A DNA stretch of 64,000 nt, taken from assembly GCA_963833575.1 (NCBI GenBank), contig CAWHXY010000007.1:224001-288000 (forward strand), written 5' to 3'. The notes beneath the pieces were generated by a model. It ran no database searches. It was not told the DNA's origin and saw nothing but the letters and a program-made list of their open reading frames with translations. Numbering within the stretch: position 1 is the stretch's first letter; every line of letters starts with the position of its first letter. Below, piece by piece: positions 4,602 through 29,716 of this stretch. The position numbers and the translations under genes are program-made. The DNA is from Candidatus Bathyarchaeota archaeon (lineage in GTDB: Archaea > Thermoproteota > Bathyarchaeia > Bathyarchaeales > Bathycorpusculaceae).

Positions 4602-4602
4602 C

Positions 4603-12984: not shown

Positions 12985-13061
12985 TGGTGCCGAGGGCAGG
13001 GTTTGAACATGCGACGACTCGGTCTTCAGCCGAGCGCTCTCCCAGGCTGAGCTACCTCGGC
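12985..13061 (-). tRNA. tRNA-Phe(GAA), CCA encoded, with atypical T-arm
   Basis: GCCGAGG/CCTCGGC acceptor stem, CTCGG-CTGAAGA-CCGAG anticodon arm, GTTCAAAC T-loop. Confidence 0.9.
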
Positions 13062-13244
13062 ACACTTTTGAAATGATTTGACATTTTTTGAGAGCGCTAT
13101 TAAGTCAATGCGCCCCATATTTATTTACGTTTTTGTTGCACCTTAATGCCACAGGAATAGAAAATCCAGCTTTTAGAATATCGTAATCAATATGGCGCTA
13201 AAAATAGGTTTTAAAGTAAATGGCACAAAAAATTAGAAAAATGT

Positions 13245-13445
13245 TTAAGGAATAAAATTTACGAAATGCATTATAATGTACCCTACAAGACCACTTGATA
13301 AGAAACAGGCAAAAATTAATGCCCCTTCATGTTCGTCTATGAAATCATTTAGTTTTATTTTCAATTTTTTTGTCACCGCTGTACTGTTTGCTTTTTGGAG
13401 GGGAAAGGTTTTATGAAGGGAGAATACGTATTTTGAATTCAGCAA
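13245..13445 (-). CDS. Possible small membrane protein; start uncertain
   Basis: C-terminal hydrophobic segment ALIFACFLSSGLVGYIIMHFV. Confidence 0.3.
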   Translation of the reverse strand: MLNSKYVFSLHKTFPLQKANSTAVTKKLKIKLNDFIDEHEGALIFACFLSSGLVGYIIMHFVNFIP

Positions 13446-13452
13446 GCAGTTT

Positions 13453-13529
13453 GGGCCGTTAGTCTAGCTGGCTAGGACGTCGCCCTCACGCGGCGAAGAT
13501 CACCGGTTCAAATCCGGTACGGCCCACCA
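13453..13529 (+). tRNA. tRNA-Val(CAC), CCA encoded
   Basis: GGGCCGT/ACGGCCC acceptor stem, TCGCC-CTCACGC-GGCGA anticodon arm, ACCGG-TTCAAAT-CCGGT T-arm. Confidence 0.97.
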
Positions 13530-13712
13530 GCATCAATCCTTCATAAGCTTTTTTTAAGTCTAATTAGCTTAATCTTAATGCTTATAACTTTGAAAAATAA
13601 CTTTATTTTGGTAATTATGCATAGAAAAGCTGTTTTTGCTCTTGCAGGAATTTTTTTGGCTGTAGCTTTGATTGTGCCTCCGCCTATTTTTATTCTTTAG
13701 GCGGATCACGAC

Positions 13713-13898
13713 TTGGATAACATGATTGTTATTAGAGATAATCCGGGGCTTGCAACAAGCAGCAACGCTACAATAACTGATGAAACAACCGAGAATCACA
13801 ACGCAAATATTATTTATGCAGCGATAATCGCATTAGTTTTTGTAATCTTATTTGTAGTGGCTCTATTTTACGACATAAACCATCCTCATCCACACTGA
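13713..13898 (+). CDS. Possible small single-TM protein
   Basis: Hydrophobic IIYAAIIALVFVILFVVALFY, ends HPHPH. Confidence 0.4.
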   Translation: MDNMIVIRDNPGLATSSNATITDETTENHNANIIYAAIIALVFVILFVVALFYDINHPHPH

Positions 13899-14067
13899 AA
13901 AAGCAAGCCAGACAATCTAACCTAAAAAAATTATCATGTTAGCTCTAAGTTACTGTACAAGCTACCGATTGTATCTTGCTGTTGTAGTTACACAATCACA
14001 AATTGTTAAAAGTGGTTAACTCCAGATGTTTTTAGCATAGTGTTGCTTGCTTTAGGAGGTGTAATTT

Positions 14068-14268
14068 ATGCCTGAAACATCGATTAATATAACTGAGAAA
14101 TTGCAGAAAATCGGTCAAACTGCTCAAGAATACAAAGATGCAATCGTTAATCAATTCAAGGATATGGAAGTAGACGTAAAAGATTGGAACTTCTCTGTAG
14201 GAAAAGCTGACAATGAATATAATGTGGAAGTAAATCTTAAGCTCAGCATCCACCCCAAAAAAGCTTAA
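14068..14268 (+). CDS. Small hypothetical protein
   Basis: Strong AGGAGGTG RBS before ATG; plausible composition. Confidence 0.75.
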   Translation: MPETSINITEKLQKIGQTAQEYKDAIVNQFKDMEVDVKDWNFSVGKADNEYNVEVNLKLSIHPKKA

Positions 14269-14415
14269 GCAGAAGCTTTCATAGCAGATTTGAACCCCTT
14301 TTCTTTAAGTTTAATTTAATCGGTTTGTAAAAAAAACGAGTTCACAGTTTTGTCACCAAAACAGATAAAAACTCGGTTTTGCATCCATGAAAGCTACTTA
14401 CAAGAGGAAATACAA

Positions 14416-14619
14416 ATGCCGTCTGAAATTACCGATGTTGATAAGTTCGTGGCTATGAGCGCCAAAGCAAAATATTGCTCTGTAAAACGGCTCAAAGACA
14501 CAGTTAAATTGAAACTTCGCACTCCAGGTCAACTTTTCACCTTGAAAATTGAGCCCATACGAGCAGATGAAGTAATAAAGAAGTTGCAGTGCGAAATTCA
14601 AGAGAAAGAAAAAAAATAA
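14416..14619 (+). CDS. rpl38e: 50S ribosomal protein L38e
   Basis: MPSEITDVDKF...VKR....KLKLRT...LFTLK matches eL38; GAGG RBS before ATG 14416. Confidence 0.8.
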   Translation: MPSEITDVDKFVAMSAKAKYCSVKRLKDTVKLKLRTPGQLFTLKIEPIRADEVIKKLQCEIQEKEKK

Positions 14620-14701
14620 CCTTTCTTAATTGTCTTCCTTTCTGTTTTTATCCACCCCATTTAAAGCTTAATTTTAATTCTTAACGTTAAATTTCCCGTT
14701 T

Positions 14702-14729
14702 GTATACGAAAGCATCAACAAAACATAGT
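14702..14729 (-). repeat. 28-bp dispersed repeat copy 1: ACTATGTTTTGTTGATGCTTTCGTATAC
   Basis: Read directly; matches five other intergenic copies. Confidence 0.9.
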
Positions 14730-15302
14730 AAACCTACCTCTATCTGCAATCCGAAGAATTCAAAAGATACTCAAAGTTCTCGAAAGTCAACGAACTATAA
14801 ATATACATGCACAATCAAAAACAAAAAATTAGGCAAAAAGCTCTAAAGGGGTCAAACAATAGGCATCTGAAGAATAAAAAAGTCCGAATTTTAAGAATAA
14901 CAGGGTAGCAAACCCAAACTCACTCGCTACGACAGCTAATTTAGGGAACAAATAATCCCCTGTAACCTTGTTGACAGGCACTTTAAGCCAGTCAAACAGC
15001 TATTAAATCGCCAAGTTTTCCCTTAGGCTTATTTAACTGCACGAAAAATAGCCGAACGGTCATTTTTTACATGTAAAAGTTAAAATAGCTATTAATACAA
15101 AGGCAAAAAAAGCGCTATTTTGATAATGCGTCCATGCCATTTTCTTGTACCGGTGGCTACGATATACGAAGAAAATTGTTTTGCAGGAAAGAAAGGGTTT
15201 TTCAGCAAGCCAGAGCATAAACGTTGCATTGGGTTGAAAAAACGTGTGCGAACGAGAAGCTGCAGGCCTTGGAATTGCTGGATTTGCTTATGGGATTTTG
15301 AA

Positions 15303-15330
15303 AGTGTGTTTGGTTGATGCTTTTGTATAC
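15303..15330 (+). repeat. 28-bp dispersed repeat copy 2: AGTGTGTTTGGTTGATGCTTTTGTATAC
   Basis: Read directly. Confidence 0.9.
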
Positions 15331-15410
15331 GGGTTCTAAAGTTAACGTGCAGTTTATTTCAGCATTTCCATTTTTTCAAGTTTTTTTGTCAATTACCAAG
15401 GGTTTAATCC

Positions 15411-16118
15411 ATGAGTGTTGAACGTAATCTGATAATTTCATTATTAAAATTAACTAAGAAAGGGGCAATTTTAATTGAAAATGTCAAAGAAGACGCCAGA
15501 ACACCATTAGCAATGACGAAAAAGTTGTTATCAAATCTGCAAAATGAAGGGCTCGTTTATTTGAAATCAGACAGTGTTGAAGCCAGCACCAGTATGAGAC
15601 TTAAACTGATGATTAAGGCAGCGTCATTAGGGGCCGATGTTGAGCACATCAGCAACTTTCTTTGTTGGCAGGAATTTGAGGAAATCGCCGCTTTCGCATT
15701 AAAAAATTTCGGTTACACTGTGACCAATAACATGCGCTTTAAACATGCAGGTCACAGATGGGAAATAGATGTTGTTGCATGTAAGAAACCTCTAGTTGTT
15801 TGCATTGATTGTAAACATTGGCAACATGCAATTACGCCCTCAGCCTTGCGAAAAATCGTTGATGCACAGGTACAGCGGACAAAAGCTTTAGCCGAATCCT
15901 TGCCCAACCTTTCACTTACATTAGAATGCACAAAATGGGAAAACGCAAAGTTTACTCCAGTCATACTATCTCTCATACCCAGTGCTTACAAATTTGTCGA
16001 CGACGTTCCTATTGTGCCTATCCTAAAATTACAAGACTTCATCAACCAAATGCCCGTTTACATGGGCTCTATAAAGTTTTTTTCCAGATCTTTCAATTCG
16101 TTAAGTCATAATTTTTAG
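15411..16118 (+). CDS. PD-(D/E)XK restriction-endonuclease-like (Mrr_cat/NERD-like) protein with probable N-terminal winged helix
   Basis: WQEFEE...GY, EIDVVA, IDCKHW motifs; N-terminal L..LQNEGLV pattern. Confidence 0.75.
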   Translation: MSVERNLIISLLKLTKKGAILIENVKEDARTPLAMTKKLLSNLQNEGLVYLKSDSVEASTSMRLKLMIKAASLGADVEHISNFLCWQEFEEIAAFALKNFGYTVTNNMRFKHAGHRWEIDVVACKKPLVVCIDCKHWQHAITPSALRKIVDAQVQRTKALAESLPNLSLTLECTKWENAKFTPVILSLIPSAYKFVDDVPIVPILKLQDFINQMPVYMGSIKFFSRSFNSLSHNF

Positions 16119-17972
16119 AAGGGCTGTTTTTGCGAGCCTATAAGCGGGGTAGAGGCTCAAGATGAACATTACGGATAGAGCTGACGCGAGCCAGAGGGTA
16201 ATTTGTAACATGGTGAAGCCGGTTATGATGGGTTGCTGCATTAGGATGAGAACTGTAATGATAGTGCCGAACAATATTCCTATTCCGAAGCTTGAGAGAA
16301 GCAGAATTAAGCTTTGAATTGCGAAAGAAAGCACAACAAATCTGGGTTTAGCCCCTACAGCTCTTAGAATAGCGTATTCTTGGTGCTGCTCATCCACCGT
16401 AAGCATCATGTAACCAACCAGGCAAAAGGCGGCAGATGCCAAGGTGAAGATTGGCAGAAGCATGATGGTTTGCCATGTTGAGGATAAGAAATTTGTGTTC
16501 TTTTGAATGATTTTATCTAAGGAGACCACGGTTAGGTTTGGATCAATTGATTGAACCATTGTTTTGATTTGTGCAATCGTGGTTGAACTGGAATCTTTCA
16601 GCTGCACTAACAACAGGTTGGGGCTGGAAATGCCAGTTACATTCATTAACGTATCAATTGATACGTAAGTAACTAAGCCGTTATTGAGAGGGTCAACGCA
16701 GACTCCAACAATGTTAAAAGTATTGTTCCCAAACTCTATACCTTGGACAAGTGGATTTGACTGGTTTATATTCAAACTTTTATCGGGTGAATACATTGAT
16801 TGAGCAATTGAATCGCCAACAACGGCATTCAAACTGCCATTGATCGTCAAAAAGTGCCCTGCAACACTCCATGTGCCATCAAGTTTGTCAACATTAACAC
16901 CTATTACTATCGAATCACCCTGCCTATGGTCGCCCACAGAAGAAGTCCCTGAAGTAGAAAGATTGTTAGGATCAACAGTAAAGTTGTCAATTTCTGAAAC
17001 ATGCTCATCTAAAACCAACCGGGAATCAACCAAAATCACACTTGATAACGTACCTAACTGGACAATTACCGGTTGCGGAATGGCAAGATTTGGGTCAGAA
17101 TAGTTAAAATCACCGTTTGCTGAGCCGCCCGAAAACTTGGCGATCAACTGTTCATATTGGTTGCCCATGCTGTTTGTGGCTATTGCAATTGTTTTTGGGT
17201 TAACAGTGTTTTGTACCCATGAAGTTGTTGTATCCCGGGCGATTATTCCTCCTGCAATTGAGACAGTGAGCAACACGAAAACGAGTGAAAGCAAAAATAC
17301 GAGGCGGATGCTTGCTTTTTGGCGGCGGTACATGCTTCTTGACGCAATCTGCCAAGTTAAACCCCATTTTGACACGGGTTTAAGTTTACTGCCTATGGTT
17401 AAACCGTTGTATTCTATAGGTGAGAGCGCTTTTACAGGGGTCATTTTGGATGCTTTAAGCATAGGCCAGAGCCCAAAAAGCAACGAAAAAACAAAAAAAG
17501 CGGCAAAAACTCCAGGTCCAAACCACAAGTTTGGCAGCTTGTAAGCAGAAAAGACCCAGTTACTAACGCCAAAATCCGTTAAAAAACCAAAAACAACGCC
17601 TAAACCACATCCTGTAAGGGTTACTGTTAAGAGTTCAGTTATAAAATATCCGGCAACAAGACTATTTGGACAGCCTGCAGCCTTAATTAAACCGAAATCC
17701 CGAGTTCTCTGAGCCATCATCAAAAAAGCGATAAAGCTTGACAAAACTGCTCCAACCGCAAAAACTAAAACGCCCACAAAAAAAGTGACCGTCGATAAAG
17801 CACCGTTTATACCCATGGTTAATGTTCCCGCGGTGGATGTTGTATAGAAGCCTAAACGGCTGCTAAAAAGCAAAAGAAACAGTGTTGAAGAAACGCTTAA
17901 CGTTAAAGTGGCGATTGTTAGGCTTGTTTGAAGCTTGCGTCGGAGCAAATCATTGGTTGGAAAATTACTCAT
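16101..17972 (-). CDS. FtsX/MacB-type ABC permease (two FtsX domains)
   Basis: QRTRDFGLIKAAG and EYAILRAVGA motifs; multiple TM helices. Confidence 0.88.
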   Translation of the reverse strand: MSNFPTNDLLRRKLQTSLTIATLTLSVSSTLFLLLFSSRLGFYTTSTAGTLTMGINGALSTVTFFVGVLVFAVGAVLSSFIAFLMMAQRTRDFGLIKAAGCPNSLVAGYFITELLTVTLTGCGLGVVFGFLTDFGVSNWVFSAYKLPNLWFGPGVFAAFFVFSLLFGLWPMLKASKMTPVKALSPIEYNGLTIGSKLKPVSKWGLTWQIASRSMYRRQKASIRLVFLLSLVFVLLTVSIAGGIIARDTTTSWVQNTVNPKTIAIATNSMGNQYEQLIAKFSGGSANGDFNYSDPNLAIPQPVIVQLGTLSSVILVDSRLVLDEHVSEIDNFTVDPNNLSTSGTSSVGDHRQGDSIVIGVNVDKLDGTWSVAGHFLTINGSLNAVVGDSIAQSMYSPDKSLNINQSNPLVQGIEFGNNTFNIVGVCVDPLNNGLVTYVSIDTLMNVTGISSPNLLLVQLKDSSSTTIAQIKTMVQSIDPNLTVVSLDKIIQKNTNFLSSTWQTIMLLPIFTLASAAFCLVGYMMLTVDEQHQEYAILRAVGAKPRFVVLSFAIQSLILLLSSFGIGILFGTIITVLILMQQPIITGFTMLQITLWLASALSVMFILSLYPAYRLAKTALLKIMT

Positions 17973-18657
17973 TTTCACTCGCCAATTTGCCGTCTTCAAG
18001 CAGTAAAATTTGGTCAGCCAACGCTTTTATTTGCTCGTCATGGGTTGAAACAATAACTGTTTTTCCTTGGTTCTTGAGCAGTTGGAGGACTTGGATGATT
18101 TTGTTGCCGTTTTTTGCATCTAAGTTACCTGTTGGTTCATCTGCCAAGATTAGCTGCGGATCATTCGCTAATGCCCTAGCAAAAGCTACCCGCTGCTGTT
18201 CGCCACCGCTTAGTTGAGACGCAAAATGATTAGCTCTATGCTGTAAGCCCACAGTTTCTAACAGTTCGTCTACTCTTTTGGCTATCTCTTCAAAAGGCTT
18301 TCGCGTCCACTCCATGGGAAAAGCAATGTTTTCCGCCACTGTCAATGTTGAAACTAAATTGTAAGATTGAAAAACAAAACCCAAGTTATTGCATCGAAAA
18401 TCTGACAGAGTATCCTCGTTTTGAGAGGTTAAATTTTGGTCTGCAACAAAAATTTTGCCGATTGAGGGTCTGTCGATGCCGCCGATAATATTTAGCAGGG
18501 TGGTTTTTCCTGAGCCAGACGCGCCGGTTAATGCTATGAATTTTGCTTTCGGGATAGACAAAGAAACATTTTTTAATACTTCAATTTTTTCGTCGCCTAA
18601 TTGGTAAACTTTTCCTAACGCTTCTGTGTACACCATAAAATCGGGGTGGTTTGACAA
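17965..18657 (-). CDS. LolD/MacB-type ABC ATP-binding protein
   Basis: [32 protein letters not shown]. Confidence 0.95.
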   Translation of the reverse strand: MSNHPDFMVYTEALGKVYQLGDEKIEVLKNVSLSIPKAKFIALTGASGSGKTTLLNIIGGIDRPSIGKIFVADQNLTSQNEDTLSDFRCNNLGFVFQSYNLVSTLTVAENIAFPMEWTRKPFEEIAKRVDELLETVGLQHRANHFASQLSGGEQQRVAFARALANDPQLILADEPTGNLDAKNGNKIIQVLQLLKNQGKTVIVSTHDEQIKALADQILLLEDGKLASENE

Positions 18658-18732
18658 TTGCCTCCCTCACTTTTAAGAAAAAAGGTTAATCGTGCCCGAA
18701 TAATATAGGTTGAGGTACATTCCCTTACGAAG

Positions 18733-19167
18733 CTAAGCATAGGTGGTGTCGATGTTCAAGTTTCCTCTGTCCCGTTTAAGAATGCGGACTTTGTCGGGAA
18801 GCTTGTTTTTTTCCCAATCAGCCCAGCTAATTTCTTTAAAAAGCCATCGTTTACCCAAATGCGCAGCCACTACCGCATGTTTGTAAGCATGTTCGCTGGG
18901 GATGAATAAGTCAAGAAACTTGAATAATTTGTCGATTTGTTGCCTGGGAAAGTAGGCGTAGTATGAGGCATTTTTTACTTCAAAAGCGTAACTGTGTAGG
19001 CCTTTCCGCGCCATAATGTCAGGTAGGGGATTGAGGCTTGGATTGCTTACAGGGACCCGGACGGCATTGTAACCTTTTTTCTGCAGTAACTTGACAAGTA
19101 CTGTTTCACTATAAAAGCCCCTTTTTCGCCAACGCCGAAGCCTTATCCTATCAATTTCTGTAGTCAC
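18733..19167 (-). CDS. Hjc/Hje-like Holliday junction resolvase
   Basis: RKRG..SE..L..L...GY..VR.P.S, PDI.A, FEVK. Confidence 0.75.
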   Translation of the reverse strand: MTTEIDRIRLRRWRKRGFYSETVLVKLLQKKGYNAVRVPVSNPSLNPLPDIMARKGLHSYAFEVKNASYYAYFPRQQIDKLFKFLDLFIPSEHAYKHAVVAAHLGKRWLFKEISWADWEKNKLPDKVRILKRDRGNLNIDTTYA

Positions 19168-19241
19168 GGTTTTTCCCTGAGTATTTACTGTTTTATTCTA
19201 TGCGTTAGAGATAAAAATTGTTGCTCTGGAGCGCTATAAAA

Positions 19242-19269
19242 ACTGTGTTTTGTTGATGCTTCTGTATAC
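19242..19269 (+). repeat. 28-bp dispersed repeat copy 3: ACTGTGTTTTGTTGATGCTTCTGTATAC
   Basis: Read directly. Confidence 0.9.
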
Positions 19270-20998
19270 GCTGCTGCAGACTGGTGTGCCTGGGAAGGCA
19301 TAGTGATGGAAAATATTCTAAATAATACTTACATCACCAAATCAACTGAAATCGTAAACCCCACCATTAACGCATTAAAAATATTGCCATATTAGGCTAC
19401 ATTAAACATTAGAAAAGTTAACGCTGAACCCAACAAACCTCAAAATAAAGCCTATTAGAAACAAAATTCCACCAACAAACAGTGGTGCAAGAGCAAAAAA
19501 CCCTTAAAAAGTTATCAAAGAATTATCATCAAAACACATAATGCAACGTGGGCTCAAAAGTAAGCGACCTCAAAGTTTCTGCGAGGAAGTTGGTTAATGG
19601 CAACTCACTAAACAAATTGTACAGAATTCTAAGTTAGATAGCTTACAATAAGCAGGTAGGTCTTTTTAAACTTGTTACAAAAGCCGGCAAACGAGCTGAT
19701 TGTTGATTTATCTGAAATAAAAAATATTTGTCTAAGCAGAATTTATTTAGACTTTAGGCTCGATTACAAAATTTTCCTTTTTTGAGTTTGTGCGCTAAAT
19801 CCGCAAAGTTTTCGGAATTAAGGAAAAAACTGTAAAAGTGGTCGAAGGTGATACGAAAAAATTGGCTTTTGCTTCGCATGGAGATTTTCGAGGGTACTTA
19901 TATGAGGCCCCGATATTCTCCATGCCACTCTCCCAAGGCACCTAGCTAAAGGGCTGAATTAACCCTATTTTGAGGTTTCAAGCTTAAATTGACAGTTTAA
20001 ATTATCGTTTCCATAGAAAAAAACGACGAACTTTTTTGTCTCTTGGAATTCGTGAAAAAACAAACATCAAAATTAAAATTTATGCCAATGTGAGCTCTAT
20101 TTCACCTTATTTTATTAAAATAAAGCTAACGGTGTTCCGTAATTTTTATTATTCCAATTTAAGAAAAAAATTTGTAAACTTGCGAGAACAACAACAACTG
20201 CGCACAGCACCGTATCCTACTTCTTGTCTGGGTCTGCGAGAGAAAGAAAAAACTTGAAAAAGCATCATTATTTGTTTGGGTTGTCTGGCGAACTTCTGAA
20301 TTGTGAAAAAACTGAATTGTACTGAATGCATTCTTTTCTGTAACCAGTCCGCAATAGAGTTATCAGATCAAAGTCAGCCAACTTATCAAAACAAAGGCTA
20401 TCCTCCTAAAATTTTATAAACTCCACAAATATCTCAAAAAGTTAATTATGCTAACTTCACAAAACAATTGTCTCGTTACTTGCTAAATTCTTTTCTGAAA
20501 TCATACAAAAAAATAAACAGCATGTCCCTCTGTGAGACGAGGTCAAGTCTTGAACTATGTTACTACAAAAAATAGTAGCGAATGCGGTTCAATAGTTATT
20601 ACCTGTTGTCTAATTGATCTTAACCTGTCGTTAAGCCAACGGTTTGGAGAAATTTTGAAAATCTTTTTTACTCTTATTGTAAGAGCAAGTATACTATTGA
20701 AGGTTCCAAGCCTGCCTAAAAGGTGCTAAGTTTGAGTCGCCACTTGATCTAAAAAAAGTGCTGAGTGACTATCGTGCTACGGGTATTACCAAATTCTTGA
20801 TCATCACAGACAACAACTAACAAAAAGATAAGGCCATTTCAACATGTCAATTAGGCAAAAGGCATTCCGCCAAAACATTTCTATTTCTTGACAGGGTAAT
20901 CAACTATTAGTTCTAAGAATTAAACAGTCCATAATAACGGCACCGCTTAAATGCAATCAACAGCAACTTCCACCTGATCTTTAAGAAAATAGTTTCTT

Positions 20999-21026
20999 GT
21001 ATACAAAAGCATCACCCAAACCCAGT
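20999..21026 (-). repeat. 28-bp dispersed repeat copy 4: ACTGGGTTTGGGTGATGCTTTTGTATAC
   Basis: Read directly. Confidence 0.88.
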
Positions 21027-21036
21027 CGGCAGGGAG

Positions 21037-22317
21037 TTAAGTTGACCGTTTTCTTTTATAAACTAAGACCGCTATGACGATTGCCATTAGTACTATAGCA
21101 CTCGCGATTGCTGGAAACTCTGGGACTGACGGTGATGGAGATGCTGATATGTTAGGTGCAGTTAGAAATGGCACAAAGTTTACCGTACCCAAACTGGAAT
21201 CATGTTTATTGTCATAGATTGTTTTGCTGATTGCTGTTTGGTTGGTTGTTCCCCAATAATTGTAAGTTGCATTTACGTTGCTTGTAACTAAATGAGATAG
21301 GAAGAGGTTGTAAGAATTATTTTGGAAATTATTATAGATGACAGTTGGAAAATCAAAATTGTTGACTTGTTGAATCCCTATGTAGTTGTTTTCTATCGTG
21401 TTATTTATCACTCTATTAGGTCCTTCAATATTGATGCCATCATGATTGTTCGTAATCAAATTATTTTCGATGACTCCGAAACCTTCTGCTGCAATGCCTT
21501 GCACGCCGCAACCACTTATTGTATTTCCAGAAATGGTAATATTATTTGCAGGAAGTGTCAAAAAACTGATTCCTACTCCGTTTATGCCGCCACCTGTAAT
21601 TTTGTTATTTGAAATCACTGGTGTTCCTTGCAGATCGCTGCTATCTTCTATGTTGCCGCCGATAACATTGGTTTGTACCTGAACTGAACCGTTAATTTGG
21701 TTGTTTAAAACTGTGGAAGGTCCAGTTAGATCGATTTCGCCCGCAACAATATTATTTGAAATTACTGAAGTTCCGTTGGAAGTAATGTAGCCCGTGATTT
21801 CATTGTTATCTATTTTTGGCGAACTTTCAAGAGCTAATGTAGTTGAGTTGATGATTGCGTTTTCAATTATGCTTCCAGACCTAGTTTGAGCGTCATATCC
21901 AACGCTTAGTTTTGTAAAGTTGATTCCATAAGTAAAAGGAGGGTTAGGCGCTGGTGGAGGCATAAAGGGGCCTGTACCGCTTACGCCATTTATTTGTATC
22001 TTGTCAGTGCTTGTGCCTTTTGCAACCAAAGCACCATTAACAGTTATGTAATAGTTGTTGAGGTTCACCGTTGCTCCTGCTTCTAATGTTAACGTAACCC
22101 TCTGGCTTACTGAAACATTTCCAATCAAATTGTATGAGCTCCCAGCTATAGTCCAAGTTGTATTGGCGTTGATTACGCCTTTTTCGTTCGTACCAATTTG
22201 CGCCAACCCGAAATGTACTGAACCCGTGAAAGCAAACCCGCCAATCACAATCGCAATAAGTGCTAATTCAAAATAGTGATGTCTCAAAGCTAGACCAAAA
22301 GTTAAGGGACTATTCAA
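21037..22317 (-). CDS. Secreted right-handed beta-helix (NosD-like) protein with PEF-CTERM-like sorting signal
   Basis: Asn/Ile-rich repeats (NNxI), NYWG motif, C-terminal VPEF + TM + KRKR. Confidence 0.85.
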   Translation of the reverse strand: MNSPLTFGLALRHHYFELALIAIVIGGFAFTGSVHFGLAQIGTNEKGVINANTTWTIAGSSYNLIGNVSVSQRVTLTLEAGATVNLNNYYITVNGALVAKGTSTDKIQINGVSGTGPFMPPPAPNPPFTYGINFTKLSVGYDAQTRSGSIIENAIINSTTLALESSPKIDNNEITGYITSNGTSVISNNIVAGEIDLTGPSTVLNNQINGSVQVQTNVIGGNIEDSSDLQGTPVISNNKITGGGINGVGISFLTLPANNITISGNTISGCGVQGIAAEGFGVIENNLITNNHDGINIEGPNRVINNTIENNYIGIQQVNNFDFPTVIYNNFQNNSYNLFLSHLVTSNVNATYNYWGTTNQTAISKTIYDNKHDSSLGTVNFVPFLTAPNISASPSPSVPEFPAIASAIVLMAIVIAVLVYKRKRST

Positions 22318-22937
22318 GGAATTTATTGTTTATCCTTTTGGGTTGGAATACAAACAGATTAACAGAACGCACTTTTACACCCTGCTGGCTTTGTATTTAC
22401 CTAATTAACGCCCGAGAAGAATCGAACATTGACGAAGGTTAAATATACGTGCGCCCAAAAGATGATCATGAAGAAAAATACAGCAAATAAATCATAAAAC
22501 AAGTCGTTAATAGCGGGCGTAAGAGTTCTTTTGATTAAAATGGCTGCTTAACACGTAAAGCAAAGTTGGCTTGGTCTAAAAAAAGCAATTTTTGATTGAT
22601 TTCTAATATTTTTTGGGCTATGAAAATGTATCTTTTTACCTTTTGGGCAGACAAGTTCTGAAAATCCTGTGATTCAATGGTTTTTGCTATTCGAAAGTTA
22701 TCTGGATTGGGAATTTTATACACCTAAAAGTTAAAATGACTTCTAAGTCATAGTTGACAATAACACGTTGCTTGCTAATTATTCATGGCTTGCATGTTTT
22801 TAGCACTTCGGTTGCCGAAGAGATAAGTTACAAAAACATACAAAACCAGAGAGACAAACGACCAGCTATACATCAAAAAATAGATTTAGAAACATTTTTC
22901 AATTATCTGCATCTATCAATCAGCTAAGGAAGCGCAC

Positions 22938-23354
22938 ATGTCAAGCTTTAAAGTCGTGAACAAGAGCTTTAGCTTCACCACTAAAGGCGAAATAGATTTT
23001 GTTGATTTGAGCGACAAAGTCCAAGATGAGGTTTCACTTTCAGGCATCAAAAACGGGATTGCACACGTCTTTGCCCCTCATGCAACAGGCATCCTAATTC
23101 TAACAGAAAACGATGAGGCTCTTCTTGAAGACATCAAGATTCTGTTTGAAGAGCTTGCGCCAAAACAAAAAAGATACCTTCACCCTTCTAACGCCCACTC
23201 CCACCTGCGGTCTATGCTTCTGCCGCCAGATAAAACCCTGCCCGTAATTGACGGCAAGGTAACTTTTGGCACCTGGCAGTCATTGCTATTTGTAGAAACC
23301 GATGTTTACCCAAGAAAACGAACAATGATAATCCAAGTTATAGGTGAGCAATAA
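22938..23354 (+). CDS. YjbQ/UPF0047 family protein
   Basis: PHAT..I...EN, NAHSHLRS, GTWQS. Confidence 0.92.
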   Translation: MSSFKVVNKSFSFTTKGEIDFVDLSDKVQDEVSLSGIKNGIAHVFAPHATGILILTENDEALLEDIKILFEELAPKQKRYLHPSNAHSHLRSMLLPPDKTLPVIDGKVTFGTWQSLLFVETDVYPRKRTMIIQVIGEQ

Positions 23355-23949
23355 AAATCCAAAAGAGTCAAATGGCAGCTCACTTTTTACAAGCGTTCTA
23401 TTTTTTTCAAAGTTTCTTTTTTTCGATTTTTTGTCATGACGAATATGTTGGTTAACATATAGTTTTAACTGTTTAATGATAATCAAACAAACTTGCATGT
23501 TATTTTTTAACTATTTATTGTTAAAAGTGATCATTCGCAGGGATTTCGATAACAAACCAATCTGATTGTATTTCGCCTCATTAGTAAATAGATTTGTGAC
23601 CGCTGAAAATCCTGAAATCAATTGCTAATAAGACTTGGGTAAACACATTCAGACAAACCCGGACCCCTCGTAAAGACTACTTTCAACCAAAAACGCATCA
23701 CGTCTTGATTAACTGAACGAAAATACCGAAATGACTAAGAAAAAATTCAAAATTTTAGCTCAAAGCAAACGAATTGTCGGGTATTGTTACGAAAAAAGTA
23801 AAGCGCAATCAATTCTCTGCAAATACAATCAGATAGAGACCAAATCTGGCACTCAGTGAAGTAGTAGGGTTACAGTTTGGTTTTCTAAAAACAAAATTTC
23901 TAAAAAAAGAATTCATGATTATATAAGGTTCGGTGTACTTCGAGAAAAA

Positions 23950-24690
23950 TCAGCTTTTCTTCTCTGTACGAACCTGTCTCGCTGGCCCTCGAGAACGCAT
24001 TCGAGCTTTTTTCTTTACATCGGCCCGCTCTGAAGACTTTTCCGCCAAAGAGTCAGGTTCCGTTTCCTCTAAAGGTAAGCTGTCAACTGCATCAGGAAAA
24101 TCATCGTTTGTGGCCTGTTGCGCTCCAGCATTAACCATCGCTTCGACGGCCCGGTCCACGTCGCCTGATTCCGCGTTAATGCCTCGTGTTGCATCCATAA
24201 GCACCACTGTCTCAAAACCAAGTTTGCGTGCATCAAGAACTGTGTTCACAACGCAATAATCCGTTGCCAACCCACCAACAAAAAGCCGTCTAGCTTCGCA
24301 CATTTTCAGTTCATGGGCGAAGCTTGTTCCATCAAAAACCGAGTAGCTTTCATGTTCAGGATTGGTTGCCTTGGAAATAACCGCGGCTACAGACGGTAGT
24401 TTGAGGTCAGGGCTAAACTTGGCGCCGTCTGTATCTTGTATGCAATGAGGCGGCCATGGACCGCCCTGCGCTTTAAACGAGATATGATTGGATGGATGCC
24501 AATCTCTAGATTCAAAAATATGCACTTTTGCATCTGCAAAACGTTTTGCGTACGCATTAAGAACAGGAATTATTTCGTCCACACCTTCAACGGGAAGCGC
24601 TCCGCCTGGCAAGAAATCTTTTTGCATATCCGTAATCAAAAGGGCATCAAAACTTGATAGATTATACGTTTTCTTCTTCAAATAACACAC
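23950..24690 (-). CDS. pncA: Nicotinamidase/pyrazinamidase
   Basis: DMQKDFLPGGAL, RDWHP, WPPHCIQ, GLATDYCV. Confidence 0.92.
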   Translation of the reverse strand: MCYLKKKTYNLSSFDALLITDMQKDFLPGGALPVEGVDEIIPVLNAYAKRFADAKVHIFESRDWHPSNHISFKAQGGPWPPHCIQDTDGAKFSPDLKLPSVAAVISKATNPEHESYSVFDGTSFAHELKMCEARRLFVGGLATDYCVVNTVLDARKLGFETVVLMDATRGINAESGDVDRAVEAMVNAGAQQATNDDFPDAVDSLPLEETEPDSLAEKSSERADVKKKARMRSRGPARQVRTEKKS

Positions 24691-24827
24691 CTTATTTCCA
24701 TTTTTCTTTAATGAATACTTAGAAATTCAAGTTAGAATAAGCAGGTACTATCGAATAAACTTTTTGAAACCATTTGGTCGACGGAAAAGTAATTAAGGAT
24801 TTGTTACTTTAATGAAATGGTGAAGTT

Positions 24828-25094
24828 ATGTCTGTTTTATCTTATGTTCTTTTTAAAGTTGCTTCAGGCACAGAAAGGGAAGTTGCTCAAAAAATGACTG
24901 AATTCGAAGAGGTTATGGAAGCAGATGTAGTTTTCGGCGAGTACGATGTCATTGCAAGAATGGCAACAGTTGATCTGGAAAAGTTACAGGATTTTGTTTC
25001 AGATAAAGTGAGAACTGTCCCGAACGTTCTTGTGACATCAACTATGATAATTTCAAGAGAATACAAGGGAAAAACCCATCGACCAAAAAAATAA
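24828..25094 (+). CDS. Stand-alone Lrp/AsnC ligand-binding domain
   Basis: VFGEYDVIA, VTSTMI; no HTH. Confidence 0.88.
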   Translation: MSVLSYVLFKVASGTEREVAQKMTEFEEVMEADVVFGEYDVIARMATVDLEKLQDFVSDKVRTVPNVLVTSTMIISREYKGKTHRPKK

Positions 25095-25103
25095 GCACTC
25101 TTT

Positions 25104-25131
25104 TAGTTGTTCGGTTGATGCTTTTGTATAC
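25104..25131 (+). repeat. 28-bp dispersed repeat copy 5: TAGTTGTTCGGTTGATGCTTTTGTATAC
   Basis: Read directly; 18-bp core is perfect. Confidence 0.88.
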
Positions 25132-25187
25132 CAACATGGATAGCCTTATCTTTTTAACCTGAGCAATAAAATACGAAGGCATCAAAC

Positions 25188-26729
25188 ATGCAAACAAAAA
25201 CCAATGACGACTCTATCTCAAGCAAAGAAATGCAAGCCTTAGAAGTCAACGCTGAATATTATGGCATAAGCTTGCTTCAACTAATGGAAAACGCTGGCTG
25301 TAAAATTGCTCACGAAACAATTTCACGTTTCCCCAAAGAAAAGAAAATTGCTATTTTCTGCGGTTTAGGCGGAAACGGAGGCGATGGCTTTGTAGCTGCA
25401 AGGCATCTTTTAGACGCTGGATACCACGTGACAGTTATTCTTGTGGGTAAGGCTCGAGACATCAATCATGAAGCTGCATTGAAAAACTGGGTGATTCTTG
25501 AGTCTTTGCAAGATAAAGTTTCATTAATTGAAATAATAGATAGTTCCACTATACCTCAAACATCGGCTGATATTGTGGTAGATGCTTTGTTGGGAACTGG
25601 AACCAAGGGGAAACTTAAGCCGCCAATATCCCAAACAGTTGAATACATTAATTCCTTAAATGCTTTTAAAATAGCAATCGATGTCCCAACAGGCATCGAC
25701 TCGGACACAGGAGAAGTTTTAGGTACAGCACTAAAAGCCAATCTCACAGTAACTTTCCATAAAGAGAAAACGGGACTAAAAAAAGCAAAAAAATATGTCG
25801 GCGAATTGACTTTGGCAAAGATAGGTTTGCCAAAGGAAATAGAGCATTACACTGGTCCAGGTGACGTTTATCTTGCAAAAAAGCCACGTAACCCAACATC
25901 TCATAAAGGCGATTTCGGGCGACTTCTTGTCATCGGCGGAAGCGAAGTTTATTATGGAGCGCCTACGCTGGTTTCGCTTGGAGCCATGCGGACAGGTGTG
26001 GACCTTGTTTATCTTGCGGCTCCTGCTAAGGCTGCTTGCGCTATTTCGTCCATGTCTCCTGACCTAATAACTGTGAAGCTTGATGGCGCCAATTTGAATC
26101 CAGGTAACATAGAGACGCTCATTCCTTATTTGAGCTTGGTTGACACTGTTGCCTTAGGTCCTGGTTTAGGCTTGAGCCCTGAAACATTAGAATTCGTTAA
26201 ATTATGTATTAAAGAAGTGGAGAAGGCGGGTAAATCCTTGCTTCTGGACGCGGATGGGATTAAAGCGTTTGCAAAGTTTAAAAGACCTCTAAAGGTACCA
26301 TTGGTTTTGACGCCTCATGCAGGTGAATACGCCACACTTTCAGGTAGAACTTTGCCTGAAAATCTAGACGAACGTGCTTTGGCAGTGCAGAAGACCGCAG
26401 GAAAACTCAATGCTGTTGTCTTAGTGAAGGGCAAAGTTGACGTAATATGTGATGCCTTCCGATTTAAATTCAATTTCACGGGAAACGTGGGTATGACTGT
26501 GGGCGGAACAGGTGATGTTCTAAGTGGTATTGTTGGCGGTTTGATGGCTCAACATATCGACCCGTTTGAAGCAGCAGTTGCCGGCGCGTTTGTTAATGGA
26601 GCTGCAGGCGATTTTGTCGCAGAAGAAATTGGTTTTCACATGGTAGCTACAGACATTATTGATTGGATTCCACAAGTTTTAGATGACCCGATGAGTCATT
26701 TGAAGGTGCGCAAACCAAGTGGAAGATAA
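25188..26729 (+). CDS. nnr: Bifunctional NAD(P)H-hydrate epimerase/dehydratase
   Basis: LMENAG, GNGGDG, DALLGTG, HKGDFG, TPHAGE, GGTGDVL. Confidence 0.95.
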   Translation: MQTKTNDDSISSKEMQALEVNAEYYGISLLQLMENAGCKIAHETISRFPKEKKIAIFCGLGGNGGDGFVAARHLLDAGYHVTVILVGKARDINHEAALKNWVILESLQDKVSLIEIIDSSTIPQTSADIVVDALLGTGTKGKLKPPISQTVEYINSLNAFKIAIDVPTGIDSDTGEVLGTALKANLTVTFHKEKTGLKKAKKYVGELTLAKIGLPKEIEHYTGPGDVYLAKKPRNPTSHKGDFGRLLVIGGSEVYYGAPTLVSLGAMRTGVDLVYLAAPAKAACAISSMSPDLITVKLDGANLNPGNIETLIPYLSLVDTVALGPGLGLSPETLEFVKLCIKEVEKAGKSLLLDADGIKAFAKFKRPLKVPLVLTPHAGEYATLSGRTLPENLDERALAVQKTAGKLNAVVLVKGKVDVICDAFRFKFNFTGNVGMTVGGTGDVLSGIVGGLMAQHIDPFEAAVAGAFVNGAAGDFVAEEIGFHMVATDIIDWIPQVLDDPMSHLKVRKPSGR

Positions 26730-27276
26730 CGCCGAAACTTCGGCTCCAAAGTTTCCTTTGCGAATTACCATCTATCATGCCGCTCAAGATGATCCTAAAA
26801 AAAACACTGCCTTAAGATTAAAACGTCGTGGATTTGCACGGATAGTTACTAAGACACGGTTTCTACCAAAACGAGCTATAGTGCTAAATCCGTTCGGTGA
26901 AATTGCTTTTTCACCTGCAGACAGAGAGCGAATTGAGCAGTTTGGGTTGGCTGCGCTGGATTGCAGTTGGGAACATGCAGAAAAAGTCATGGGTGATCAC
27001 GTTAAAGGAACAAGTCGTTGCTTGCCCATTCTAATTGCGGGAAACGCTGTCAATTTTGGGAAACTTACCAAGTTAACTACTGCCGAAGCCATAGCCGCTG
27101 CATTATATATTGCTGGATTCCAAAAGGAATCACATGAGCTTTTATCAATTTTCACTTGGGGACACACGTTTTTCGATTTAAACGCCATGCTGCTTGGCAA
27201 TTATGTTGCAGCCAAAGATAGTACTGAAATCGTGGAAATGCAAAATAGGCTTTTGAAGGGCAAGAAATGTGAATAA
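26719..27276 (+). CDS. tsr3: 16S rRNA aminocarboxypropyltransferase (DUF367)
   Basis: DDPKKNT, SPADR, LDCSW, R.LP.LIAGN.VNFG, AEA, F.WGHTF. Confidence 0.9.
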   Translation: MEDNAETSAPKFPLRITIYHAAQDDPKKNTALRLKRRGFARIVTKTRFLPKRAIVLNPFGEIAFSPADRERIEQFGLAALDCSWEHAEKVMGDHVKGTSRCLPILIAGNAVNFGKLTKLTTAEAIAAALYIAGFQKESHELLSIFTWGHTFFDLNAMLLGNYVAAKDSTEIVEMQNRLLKGKKCE

Positions 27277-27278
27277 CA

Positions 27279-27306
27279 CTGGGGTTTTGTTGATGCTTTT
27301 GTATAC
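27279..27306 (+). repeat. 28-bp dispersed repeat copy 6: CTGGGGTTTTGTTGATGCTTTTGTATAC
   Basis: Read directly. Confidence 0.9.
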
Positions 27307-27375
27307 AGAATCATGAAAGACTTATAGCAAACCATTGCAAAACTCATTAAAAGGCGCCATGGGTTATGGTGAAGC

Positions 27376-28017
27376 TTGCAATACATAACTGATTTCTATT
27401 TATTCTTAGCTTCAGTCATGCTGATTTCACTCTCAGGCGTCCTAATGCCAGGACCATTATTCGCCGTTACATTAAAGAAAGCAACAAAAAGCAAGGTTGC
27501 AGGAGCATTAATTGCCCTGGGACACGGATTAGTGGAGTTTCCGCTGATGTTTCTAATTTTCTTCTTGCTCAGCCAATTTAACATTCCAAGCATTGTGCAA
27601 GTAGTAGTTGGAGTGGTTGGAGGACTCTTGATGATTCTTATGGGCATACAAACATTCAGAAACAGAAGCAAAAGGGAGGAATCAAAGGTAAGTCTTAAGC
27701 TGGATTCCGTATTTGCGGGAGTTTATACAACAGCAGTTAATGCAGGCTTCATTTTGTGGTGGTTAACCATTGGCACAACACTCATACTAAATGCTCGACT
27801 GTTTGGGTTTGTTGGATTTTCAATATTTGCTGGTGTTCATTGGTTAATTGATTTCTCATGGTACACTATAACGGCATTGGTGATTTTTAAGTCGCAGCGA
27901 TTTTGGAACGAGCGCATAAGAATGGGAATTACAATTTTTTGTGTTGCAGTCTTCATCGGTTTTGGAGCTTACTTTATGGGTTCAACATTATGGGTTTCTA
28001 TTAGTACAGTTATATAG
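27376..28017 (+). CDS. LysE family translocator
   Basis: SGVLMPGP, GHGLVE, WWLTIG, HW..DF.W. Confidence 0.88.
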   Translation: MQYITDFYLFLASVMLISLSGVLMPGPLFAVTLKKATKSKVAGALIALGHGLVEFPLMFLIFFLLSQFNIPSIVQVVVGVVGGLLMILMGIQTFRNRSKREESKVSLKLDSVFAGVYTTAVNAGFILWWLTIGTTLILNARLFGFVGFSIFAGVHWLIDFSWYTITALVIFKSQRFWNERIRMGITIFCVAVFIGFGAYFMGSTLWVSISTVI

Positions 28018-28037
28018 AAAGCGGAGAGAATACTGTC

Positions 28038-28592
28038 ATGAAATTTCACGTAGGAAACACAGTTTTCGAGTTAATCAAAGGCGACATCACCGAGATTGAA
28101 ACTTATGCTATTGTTAACGCGGCAAATTCGTCGCTGAAGGGTGGAGGGGGAGTGGATGGAGCGATACATAGTAAAGGGGGACCTAAAATTCTTGAAGAAT
28201 GTAAACGTATAAGAGACACTGAGTGGCCTGATGGTTTGCCAACTGGAAAATCAGTGATTACTTCAGGCGGCAACCTGAAAGCTAAATATGTTATTCATAC
28301 AGTTGGGCCTGTCTGGATGGGAGGATTCCACGTCGAATCTGAACTTTTGAAACAGGCATACAGGAACTCGCTGAAACTAGCAGTTGCTAAAGGACTTAAG
28401 ACAATTGCGTTTCCATCAATTAGCACTGGAGCTTATGGCTATCCTATTGAAGAAGCCAGCCTGATAGCAGTCAAAACGATAAAGGATTTTCTGGAAAAGG
28501 AAGATAAAATTGTAAAAGTTGTTTTTGTATTGTTTTCTGGTAATGCATTTGAAGTCTATTTGAAAACTGCGAAAGCCCTTTTGAAGCCTTAG
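28038..28592 (+). CDS. Macro-domain O-acetyl-ADP-ribose deacetylase (YmdB-like)
   Basis: GDIT, AIVNAANSSL.GGGGVDGAIH, HTVGPVW, AFPSISTGAYGYP. Confidence 0.95.
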   Translation: MKFHVGNTVFELIKGDITEIETYAIVNAANSSLKGGGGVDGAIHSKGGPKILEECKRIRDTEWPDGLPTGKSVITSGGNLKAKYVIHTVGPVWMGGFHVESELLKQAYRNSLKLAVAKGLKTIAFPSISTGAYGYPIEEASLIAVKTIKDFLEKEDKIVKVVFVLFSGNAFEVYLKTAKALLKP

Positions 28593-28782
28593 CCTCAAAA
28601 GAAATCATTACCAAATGCTAAGTTTATCGACATTGTTTTTATTGGTTAAACTAACTATGTCTTTTTTAGACGCATCAATTTTCAGAATATATCAAATATT
28701 AAAACAAGCCATATATTAATATTTGAGATACAAATGTATTCACGAACAACAAATCAACAATACGGACAAAGAGAGTTAGAAA

Positions 28783-29157
28783 ATGAAACAAGGATTAACT
28801 GAGTTGGGTTTTGAAATTCTTTTTTCAACCGATGACTCGCCAGGTAAAATTGCCTTTGATCAGGCAATCGAAGAATCAATTGAGGCCGCGCTTTCGCTTT
28901 TGGGAAATATAAGTAAAGAAAGGGTTTATCACCATTTGGAAAACAGGTATGGCTTAAAGAAAGAGGATATTCCTCGGCGTATTGGAGAGTTCACGCATGC
29001 TTTTGAAGAAACATTTGGCTCAGTTGCTAAGCTCCTTGAAATAAAAATAATTGAGCGGCTTCATTCTAAATTCGGGAATTTCTCTTATAGTCCGATGCAT
29101 GAAGACATAGATTTCATAGAATTTATTAATAATCTTCAGCAGTATTTGGAGACTTAA
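28783..29157 (+). CDS. NitrOD5/DUF3227-like small output-domain protein
   Basis: EAALSLLG...VYHHLE..YGLKKEDIP....F..AFEETFG..AKLLE. Confidence 0.65.
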   Translation: MKQGLTELGFEILFSTDDSPGKIAFDQAIEESIEAALSLLGNISKERVYHHLENRYGLKKEDIPRRIGEFTHAFEETFGSVAKLLEIKIIERLHSKFGNFSYSPMHEDIDFIEFINNLQQYLET

Positions 29158-29453: not shown

Positions 29454-29716
29454 AATCTCAACCCTCGTTACATATACAATTGCCGAAACATCGCTATTAA
29501 ATCTGTGTTACAGTCTAATCACAACAACAAGTTAGCCTGACAAGCGCGTCCATGTCAAACATGTGCCAACTGGACGAAGCTGACGCCTTGTATGACGGGC
29601 TTTTTCACAGAACCCAGAGAGAGCAAATGGCACGCATTTATTTTTTGTCTCTTTCTTGATTTCATTACTGAAGGCTAAACTTGGTCTCTTTAATGCTAAA
29701 GATCATTTACGCAATT

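Follow-up and report, generated by a model that had tools for sequence, protein, structure and literature searches.

Asymmetric, Polar Intergenic Sites Clustered Opposite the Replication Origin in Bathyarchaeia: a Possible Counterpart of Bacterial Ter Sites

What could be the function of a short, asymmetric DNA element that stands in six intergenic gaps of one small region of a bathyarchaeal chromosome and almost nowhere else? The question was raised by a 64-kb stretch of DNA, called the window throughout, which comprises positions 224001-288000 of contig CAWHXY010000007.1 in assembly GCA_963833575.1 of a Candidatus Bathyarchaeota archaeon (here contig C7 of genome G000; other genomes, contigs, loci, and families bear the labels G, C, L, and f). 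The original prediction, made from the letters of the window, had described six copies of a 28-bp repeat and suggested an undescribed chromosome-site system. Our analyses supported such a system over a regulon, a repeat family, or a CRISPR (clustered regularly interspaced short palindromic repeat) array, and of the options offered at that time the Ter-like one fit best, a non-Cdc6 origin being disfavored and a centromere-like site having no support. We tentatively consider the copies to be polar protein-binding sites that are laid out along the replication axis and are most like a Ter fork trap, a reading to which we assign a probability of about 45%.

To locate the copies, the window was searched for the 18-mer core GTTGATGCTTTTGTATAC at up to 2 mismatches. 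As shown in Table 1, six matches were recovered at the places named beforehand, each with 0-1 mismatches as had been claimed, and none elsewhere in the 64 kb; 100 dinucleotide shuffles of the window gave zero matches at the same threshold, that is, 0 expected by chance. The 28-mer consensus stood for four of the six copies, which matched it at no more than 3 mismatches, whereas the copies at 25104 and 27279 diverged more in their first ten bases. On a map of open reading frames (ORFs) and Pfam domains, all six copies were intergenic, again in agreement with the prediction, and two of them lay in gaps shorter than 100 bp (25095-25187 and 27277-27375), with the 32-bp span of copy 6 overlapping 2 bases of the tsr3 stop codon. 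When the copies were aligned with 100-base flanks, similarity among them ended at the motif.

The clustering was tight, as predicted, and proved stronger than could be seen from the window. In the whole 2,750,337-bp, 8-contig assembly, the 18-mer occurred 7 times at up to 2 mismatches, 6 of them in the window. A weight matrix built from the copies of relatives only and then run over the whole genome (5.3 million positions) returned 7 matches at 31-47 bits and two weak ones (22.3 and 13.1 bits), with none other above 12 bits. The sites were all-or-none and positioned, not scattered evenly at fixed promoter distances. A logo of 81 copies, from this and 14 related loci, read aaaA-n-TGTGTTTkGkT-GATGCTTTTGTATAC, in which the 3′ half of 15-18 bp was near-invariant and the 5′ half was weaker. 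Beyond the motif nothing was conserved at a fixed distance on either side, and the flanks diverged freely. The site is an asymmetric element of 28-32 bp without a dyad.

Reading from the left, the order in the window, in line with the genes named in the prediction, is rpl38e, site (-), 570 bp of noncoding DNA, site (+), the winged-helix and PD-(D/E)XK nuclease gene, FtsX/ABC transporter genes, and hjc. There follow site (+), 1.73 kb of noncoding DNA, site (-), and genes for a beta-helix protein, UPF0047 (YjbQ), and an isochorismatase-family protein; the right end consists of a stand-alone Lrp ligand domain, site (+), nnr, tsr3, site (+), and LysE. Copies 1 and 2 form a divergent pair that encloses the 570-bp spacer, which is conserved. 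Copy 1, whose orthologue is retained in relatives, stands at 82 bp from rpl38e (3′ end) and at 52 bp from a divergent promoter-like element (block A, described below). Copies 3 and 4 converge at a distance of 1.73 kb; the 28-mer of copy 3 begins 75 bp from the start of the divergent hjc gene, and copy 4 stands 10 bp past the stop of the beta-helix gene. Copy 5 occupies the gap between the Lrp-type ligand-domain gene, whose stop is 9 bp ahead of it, and nnr, 56 bp further on. Neighbors of the sites, here and elsewhere, were without a common theme (rpl38e, nuclease, hjc, nnr, tsr3, LysE, gdh, the end of the L4-L23-L2-S19 operon, MazG, and LysRS), and the prediction was correct both in calling them functionally unrelated and in finding the orientation of the copies inconsistent relative to genes. 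Orientation was instead consistent with the replication axis, as described below.

Table 1. Coordinates of the sites, of associated features, and of site copies in related genomes. Positions without a genome or contig label are those of the window.
Feature	Position	Strand	18-mer core match	Matrix score (bits)	Remarks
Site copy 1	14702-14733	-	14702-14719, 1 mismatch	38.0	Left outermost; points out of the cluster
Site copy 2	15299-15330	+	15313-15330, 0 mismatches	47.1	80 bp upstream of the co-oriented nuclease gene
Site copy 3	19238-19269	+	19252-19269, 1 mismatch	46.8	Left arm of the convergent pair
Site copy 4	20999-21030	-	20999-21016, 1 mismatch	41.0	Right arm of the convergent arrangement
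Site copy 5	25100-25131	+	25114-25131, 0 mismatches	31.4	
Site copy 6	27275-27306	+	27289-27306, 0 mismatches	38.6	Right outermost; points out of the cluster; between tsr3 and LysE
Winged-helix + PD-(D/E)XK nuclease gene	15411-16118	+			235 aa, single-copy; candidate binder by position only
hjc (Holliday junction resolvase)	18733-19167	-			Linked to the convergent pair in three families
Module 1	14781-15085	+			Block A 14781-14808 and block B 15066-15085; within the divergent-pair spacer
Module 2	22423-22736	+			Block A 22423-22450 and block B 22717-22736; upstream of UPF0047
Third block A	23915-23942	-			Just past the isochorismatase-family gene
Noncoding stretch between convergent arms	19270-20998				No ORF of at least 50 aa over most of its length
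G003 (2,354,843 bp)	ORBs 2,167,805-2,168,266; convergent pair 967,478(+)/967,745(-)				Pair 23 kb (0.98%) from antipode
G014 (2,683,460 bp)	ORBs 517,054-517,518; convergent pair 1,900,892(+)/1,902,820(-)				Pair 43 kb (1.6%) from antipode
G052, another family (2,152,572 bp)	ORBs 115,111-115,339; convergent pair 1,206,250(+)/1,207,722(-)				Pair 15 kb (0.72%) from antipode
G000, copies outside the cluster	C4:740,730(-), 795,357(+), 842,564(+)				Around 779.8 kb; 3/3 fit; first two are weak matches
G003, copies outside the cluster	2,137,131(-), 2,219,099(+)				2/2 fit
G014, copies outside the cluster	445,857(-), 507,287(-), 526,523(+), 598,536(+)				4/4 fit
G030, copies outside the cluster	C3:62,903(-), 109,664(-), 159,521(+)				Around 120.8 kb; 3/3 fit
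G035, copy outside the cluster					1/1 fit
G052, copies outside the cluster	301,276(+), 393,705(+), 1,171,321(+) on one arm; 1,903,229(-) on the other				4/4 fit
Near-cluster copies	G008 C15:13,408(+), 76,613(-); G191 C6:113,861(-); G030 C2:204,313(-)				All point towards the cluster

The site was conserved in relatives. All 36 sampled relatives of the genus carried it, with 2-13 copies each. In a class-wide draw of genomes, its occurrence by family of the order was 27/27 in f1, 9/9 in f11, 7/7 in f7, 3/4 in f6, 1/1 in f2, and 0/2 in f10. In other orders, any match was obtained in 16 of 100 genomes, and among the matches listed, 9 came from 7 genomes and were all at 2 mismatches; a reversed-pattern control gave 0-2 matches per genome. 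Judged by these match counts, the site does not appear to be credibly present in other orders of the class. tblastn with the window proteins recovered the same gene set and site positions in 11 other loci of the genus, with some rearrangement at the edges. A single cluster at the syntenic locus was found across the genus, where it holds 5-8 copies within 9-13 kb, and throughout the order the sites keep to this locus.

Two arrangements recur within the cluster. On the nuclease side, the genus loci repeat the divergent pair at a spacing of about 600-850 bp, with conserved blocks in the spacer. On the hjc side they repeat the convergent pair, the arms of which are separated by 241-306 bp in 7 of 12 loci; in the other 5, this window among them, the distance is 1.1-2.4 kb. 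Other families of the order carry just 1-3 copies; in their two-copy genomes, a convergent pair 269-774 bp apart was found in 4/5, and likewise in G042 and G148. Because families with few copies keep that pair, and hjc stands beside it in families f3 and f11 as well, the convergent pair is the conserved core of the system across families.

To place the cluster on the chromosome, the replication origin (oriC) was sought. In G000 a canonical origin occurred upstream of cdc6-1 at C4:779.6-780.1 kb (779,600-780,070; locus L092, 2110-2564). Three elements resembling origin recognition boxes (ORBs; TCCAGTAGAAGC..GGGG plus one diverged) were inverted, two on one strand and one on the other, and surrounded a 150-bp stretch of 21% GC. 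No ORB-like element TCCAGTAGAAGC..GGGG was found anywhere else in this genome. The same layout was present upstream of cdc6-1 in G003, G014, and G052; in three of the four genomes the inverted ORBs surround a stretch of 17-23% GC, and in G014 the AT-richest stretch lies elsewhere in the fetched region. ORB-like elements were absent around the second cdc6 gene (cdc6-2) in all four. Matches to Cdc6_C in G000 were at C4:778 kb, C6:250 kb, and C4:0.3 kb, none being on the contig of the window. The three relatives are single-contig, and their circular closure was assumed for antipode distances. As shown in Table 1, the cluster was antipodal to the ORB-bearing oriC in 3/3 of these genomes, being off by 0.72-1.6% of genome length; for any one genome, a position so near the antipode has a chance of 1.4-3.2%.

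Copies outside the cluster were then scored for direction, provided that they shared a contig with cdc6-1 or lay in a complete genome, copies on contigs with neither this landmark nor the cluster being left unscored. They were (-) on the low-coordinate side of cdc6-1/oriC and (+) on the other side, and 27/27, in 11 genomes that also include G189 and G008, pointed away from oriC. A G014 match at 2,209,733 (1 mismatch) was dropped for a matrix score below 9 bits; its polarity would have fitted. Site polarity also predicted the location of cdc6-1. From strand switches at G169 C1:600,053-689,790, G163 C20:44,591-68,642, and G191 C5:62,935-143,614, the gene was expected within these intervals and was found at 610.6, 57.1, and 132.1 kb, respectively, so that all three predictions held. 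Near the cluster, 4/4 copies that lay 22-38 kb off on the same contig pointed towards it.

In the genus, most non-cluster copies are within about 80 kb of the origin, and the gdh copy changes sides of oriC, being on the left in G014 and on the right in G003. In G052 all 4 extra copies are polar, although the genes beside them are not those found in the genus. Since the gdh and LysRS/AsnB copies are flanked on both sides by genes on the opposite strand, the polarity is not a by-product of gene direction.

Bacterial fork traps are described as low-copy polar sites that flank the terminus opposite the origin (PMC4999828, PMC4287441). Few invariant asymmetric sites, an antipodal cluster, arm polarity, and a convergent pair match that layout, which is why the Ter-like reading ranks first. 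The element would then be the recognition site of a sequence-specific DNA-binding protein. The dense cluster lies opposite the single canonical Orc1/Cdc6 origin, in the region where forks are expected to meet, and the remaining copies on both chromosome arms each point from origin to terminus. By analogy with the bacterial systems, a bound site would be a polar barrier, letting pass a replisome that moves along the arrow and stopping one that moves against it. The convergent pair would be the switch point of polarity and the minimal fork trap, as are TerI/TerII of Bacillus subtilis or the inner Ter sites of Escherichia coli, and the arm copies would stop forks running the wrong way. The outward copies of the cluster need a second explanation because in a simple trap they would face incoming forks with their blocking side. 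A strong promoter-like block is found at 37-52 bp from these copies, or else the nnr promoter region at 12-20 bp, and the same protein may also act on transcription there. Tus and RTP act on transcription at their own genes.

Several points weigh against this reading. The three antipodal genomes are related, so that they count as only one or two independent trials. Inversions symmetric about the origin keep both distance and polarity, and the 27 polar copies correspond by our estimate to about ten independent events; the polarity counts are thus inflated by orthology and such inversions, which preserve distance and direction alike. In 8 of 10 untruncated loci of the genus (L040 being ambiguous and L046 not conforming), and also in G003 and G014, the outermost copies of the cluster face outward. 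Many copies are 12-50 bp from core-promoter-like elements in either orientation, which a transcription factor would match too. GC skew, gene-strand bias, and k-mer skew gave no usable signal (held-out t of -0.08 to -1.08), the k-mer skew having been trained on one contig and having no held-out predictive power; comparison with cumulative GC skew was uninformative in this genome, and the presumed terminus is placed by geometry alone. Assembled contigs of one RNA and one DNA run over the region belonged mostly to relatives at <95% identity and revealed neither transcript ends nor a depth profile that could be used. Tus (PF05472) had no match in the genome, and RTP (PF02334) had one RTP/PadR-like match of 22.3 bits, against a cut-off of 26.7 bits, at C4:547 kb, far from any site. 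Forks in Sulfolobus are reported to terminate by stochastic collision, with no Ter sites involved (PMC3020120).

Candidates for the cognate protein were also considered by position and distribution. The nuclease gene beside copy 2 encodes an N-terminal winged helix and an intact E..D..D-x-K catalytic motif; its predicted structure is confident (pLDDT 83.6) and weakly resembles FokI-like and Can2/Card1-like nucleases, with no sequence match in the PDB. In every in-order family whose coordinates were checked, sites occur at no more than a few kb from this gene. It is, however, class-wide, being single-copy in 136/151 Bathyarchaeia genomes, and 17 fetched loci around it (14 from other orders and 3 from family f6) contained no comparable repeat; the nuclease was rejected as the cognate binder on these grounds. 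Cdc6-2 was rejected likewise, since it is class-wide but was found in 0/9 f11 genomes, which have sites in 9/9.

An alternative that explains the outward copies, as a fork trap does not, holds that the copies are oriented architectural sites, that is, direction-dependent anchors or barriers for a chromosome organizer such as an SMC-type loop extruder or a bridging protein. The chromosome would be divided into an origin domain, two arms, and a terminus domain, in the manner of convergent CTCF loops. In G003 and G014, sites bracket each arm and point into it from both ends, and the outward rule of the genus loci is kept despite gene rearrangement at cluster edges. The evidence from axis-aligned placement and polarity applies equally here. 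However, the right cluster edge of G052 departs from the outward rule, and two-copy families have sites that face each other a few hundred bp apart and bracket nothing on a chromosome scale. In the window the sites have no linked gene for SMC, kleisin, or partition, and oriented barriers to loop extrusion are, to our knowledge, without precedent among prokaryotes, which also counts against this alternative. We regard it as unlikely. That a single site type would set both termination and large-scale folding, with the hjc-side pair as the meeting point of replisomes and the other copies as one-way arm boundaries, seems to us distinctly improbable.

Closeness to promoters is what speaks for an operator or upstream activating site of a transcription factor, the chromosomal position being inherited history. 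About 28 of the 81 copies lie 48-111 bp upstream of a co-oriented gene start, and in about 19 of 81 the 28-mer is 52-86 bp from a divergent one. Core-promoter-like elements follow the site by 12-27 bp at nnr, LysE, hjc, and gdh, and are 37-52 bp from it at most block A copies, with 200 and 820 bp in two loci. TTTATA-type words in this genome peak 36-46 nt before start codons, with a Shine-Dalgarno word at about -14, which would put the site just upstream of the core promoter. Symmetric inversions, moreover, could keep an accidental ancestral layout. A generic promoter element was rejected as the identity of the motif, GTATAC and TGTATA words showing no peak before start codons. Against an operator, the putative targets have no common function; site strength is all-or-none rather than graded; and the site is long, asymmetric, and without a dyad. 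Conserved copies also stand where there is no promoter to serve, namely, after S19, between opposite-strand genes, and after the beta-helix gene. A regulon does not predict the 27/27 polarity, the antipodal cluster, or the gathering of other copies around oriC, and the polar extra copies of G052 lie beside different genes. We regard an operator, which is the main conventional alternative, as unlikely.

The L4-L23-L2-S19 operon ends after S19 with a site copy (L055 243-2538, L062, and L058 in relatives; near 740.7 kb on C4 of G000), and this copy is followed by 350-540 bp of unconserved noncoding DNA and then a convergent gene, with no run-on into L22/S3.

A second replication origin, used by an initiator other than the origin-linked Orc1/Cdc6 and having its AT-rich unwinding region flanked by the divergent pair, was the non-Cdc6 origin option of the original prediction. 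In its favor, AT-rich blocks occur in the conserved noncoding spacer of the divergent pair (570-850 bp), together with direct CGAA repeats at intervals of about one helical turn; the convergent pair is adjoined by iteron-like CTGGTG repeats; and half-genome spacing would be sensible for a two-origin chromosome. At the canonical oriC, though, flanking copies point away, whereas the 4/4 copies at 22-38 kb point towards the cluster. There is no initiator gene nearby; cdc6-2 is unlinked to the sites and was found in none of the 9 f11 genomes, all of which carry them; a canonical ORB origin exists elsewhere; and the unit conserved across families is the convergent, not the divergent, pair. We consider a second origin very unlikely. 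Relic ends or recombination sites of a mobile or invertible element are scarcely credible: inverted arms of ~30 bp around ~250 bp do outline a miniature inverted-repeat transposable element (MITE) or an invertible switch, but each genome has a single pair, which keeps its syntenic position next to hjc from family to family, the copies share no similarity beyond the arms, the orientation of the spacer relative to hjc is constant in 12/12 aligned genus loci, and no transposase or invertase gene is linked in the genus.

Two further identities were tried and rejected. An RNA gene was not supported: Rfam at gathering scores returned two tRNAs and nothing else from the window, ARAGORN returned the same pair, and nothing credible was found by Rfam in 13500-25200 at E up to 5. 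RNase P and signal recognition particle (SRP) RNAs are elsewhere on the contig, and no conservation was seen downstream of the site at the gdh and S19 copies (two orthologous groups). A dif site is defined by two 11-bp inverted arms and a 6-bp spacer (PMC2958812). Repeats of this 11-6-11 form (at least 8/11 positions paired and conserved in relatives) in 13000-30000 were only coding sequence and the motif itself.

The noncoding DNA of the cluster contains other conserved elements. Block A consists of CGAA-n6-CGAA, a canonical sequence resembling a B recognition element (BRE) and TATA box, TATAAATATACAT, and then CAT; its pattern occurs 3 times in the whole 2.75-Mb genome, always in the cluster, and 2-3 times in every genus cluster. 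Block B usually follows 263-410 bp downstream, and the DNA between the blocks is unconserved even among the three copies here. Block B itself (15042-15090(+) and 22690-22740(+)) reads CGAAA-n6-CGAA and then ATTTTTTACA..AAAGTTAAAA and shows strong conservation throughout the genus; it may serve as a terminator, as a second promoter, or as a site for a protein. Taken as a dif-like repeat of 11-6-11 form, it attains only about 7/11 positions.

Just past the hjc-side copy, at 19281-19340, three CTGGTG-like repeats stand 9-11 bp apart (about one helical turn), with an inverted CACCAA about 35 bp beyond them, an arrangement that is iteron-like. The repeats are conserved in the genus and recognizable in families f3 and f7, and RNAalifold found no consensus RNA fold in this region. 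The noncoding stretch between the convergent arms, which in relatives is ~250 bp in 7/12 loci, probably consists of inserted DNA or decayed cargo at the point where polarity switches.

Other observations were made beside single copies. An imperfect palindrome, GGATAGCCTTATCT (GATAGsCTTATC), occurs at 25139-25152, 12-20 bp after the nnr-side copy, in all genus loci, and on contig C4 the gap separating gdh from its site copy contains a related AGATAAG element. In family f7, weak phage-integrase fragments are found beside site copies (L066 2320-2709, near 1,903 kb on C1 of G052, and L044 6127-6720). Away from the cluster, window positions 1456-6329(+) encode a Pfam run of 4-HFC-P synthase, a pyridoxal phosphate (PLP)-dependent decarboxylase, an ATP-grasp enzyme, a hydantoinase-like protein, and an amino-acid kinase, a gene set that we take to resemble methanofuran-type cofactor synthesis.

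Replication is known to terminate at specific sites in a few bacterial groups and at special loci in eukaryotes. In the literature that we searched, we found no description of an archaeal fork trap, nor of an origin or terminus element in Bathyarchaeia. If the Ter-like reading is true, the site would be the first archaeal counterpart of bacterial Ter sites and part of the first archaeal fork trap, and, if the protein that binds it is unrelated to Tus or RTP, polar terminus systems would have arisen independently in Archaea against a CMG (Cdc45-MCM-GINS)-type helicase. The system would make termination by MCM/CMG, the constraint of layout on gene order, and the reader protein testable in an abundant uncultured archaeal class with single-origin chromosomes. 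In fragmented assemblies of the order, the site is usable as a marker of terminus location and of contig orientation relative to the replication axis.

Comparison with known systems separates the site from most of them. It differs from parS/ParB or SegB sites, the centromere-like option of the original prediction, in being asymmetric, without a dyad, and antipodal to oriC; no ParA/SegA-type, SMC, kleisin, or partition gene, including a partition ATPase, was linked to it among the 61 window ORFs scanned. Unlike matS/MatP, whose short palindromes spread over a large terminus domain, it is a 32-bp asymmetric site with most copies in 9-13 kb, and the matS-like option was dropped. It is unlike Xer/dif in lacking a dyad and in being multi-copy, as had been stated. 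A transcription-factor regulon differs from it in view of its all-or-none scores and unrelated neighbors, the promoter closeness being real. Terminal repeats of MITEs or insertion sequences (ISs) differ as well, for nothing beyond the motif is conserved and each genome has one syntenic cluster with one such pair.

Other systems share part of the layout. Like archaeal ORBs, the sites are asymmetric elements of ~25-35 bp, could be read with polarity by a protein, flank a noncoding region as inverted copies, and are conserved among relatives. Their sequence, as the prediction had held, lacks the ORB dyad and G-string; canonical ORBs stand only upstream of cdc6-1, and no initiator gene is near the site cluster. 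CTCF sites of animals are likewise long and asymmetric, with orientation rather than position relative to genes being conserved and with convergent pairs bracketing domains; animals have thousands of copies, no prokaryotic example is known to us, and the likeness here is in site layout only. Fob1-RFB (replication fork barrier) of yeast rDNA and RTS1 of fission yeast are polar fork barriers at the ends of transcription units. Several copies here stand immediately past the 3′ terminus of the gene or operon with which they are co-oriented (S19, tsr3, the Lrp-type gene, and the beta-helix gene), and a barrier to head-on forks at such gene ends would, as with those systems, protect transcription. 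The yeast barriers, unlike these sites, are local to special loci and not chromosome-wide, and their proteins are unrelated.

The bacterial fork traps come closest. In B. subtilis, TerI and TerII form an inverted pair beside rtp, and both systems have a close inverted pair of polar sites at the terminus, few further sites nearby, and a small conserved locus. The arms here are 270-770 bp apart versus tens of bp, the RTP/PadR-like match is below threshold and elsewhere, and it is hjc, not a known DNA-binding terminator, that lies beside the pair. Tus-Ter of E. coli differs in that there is no sequence likeness and no Tus homologue, and in that the host here is archaeal with a CMG-type helicase; most copies are in ~12 kb instead of a large zone, two cluster copies are reversed, and in this genus several copies are close to the origin. 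Nevertheless, as in Tus-Ter, the sites are asymmetric and of the 20-30-bp type, number about ten per genome, and are intergenic or at gene ends. They are centered opposite the origin, an arrangement seen here in 3/3 single-contig genomes, and the arm sites, some of them far up the arms, are all in one orientation, from origin to terminus.

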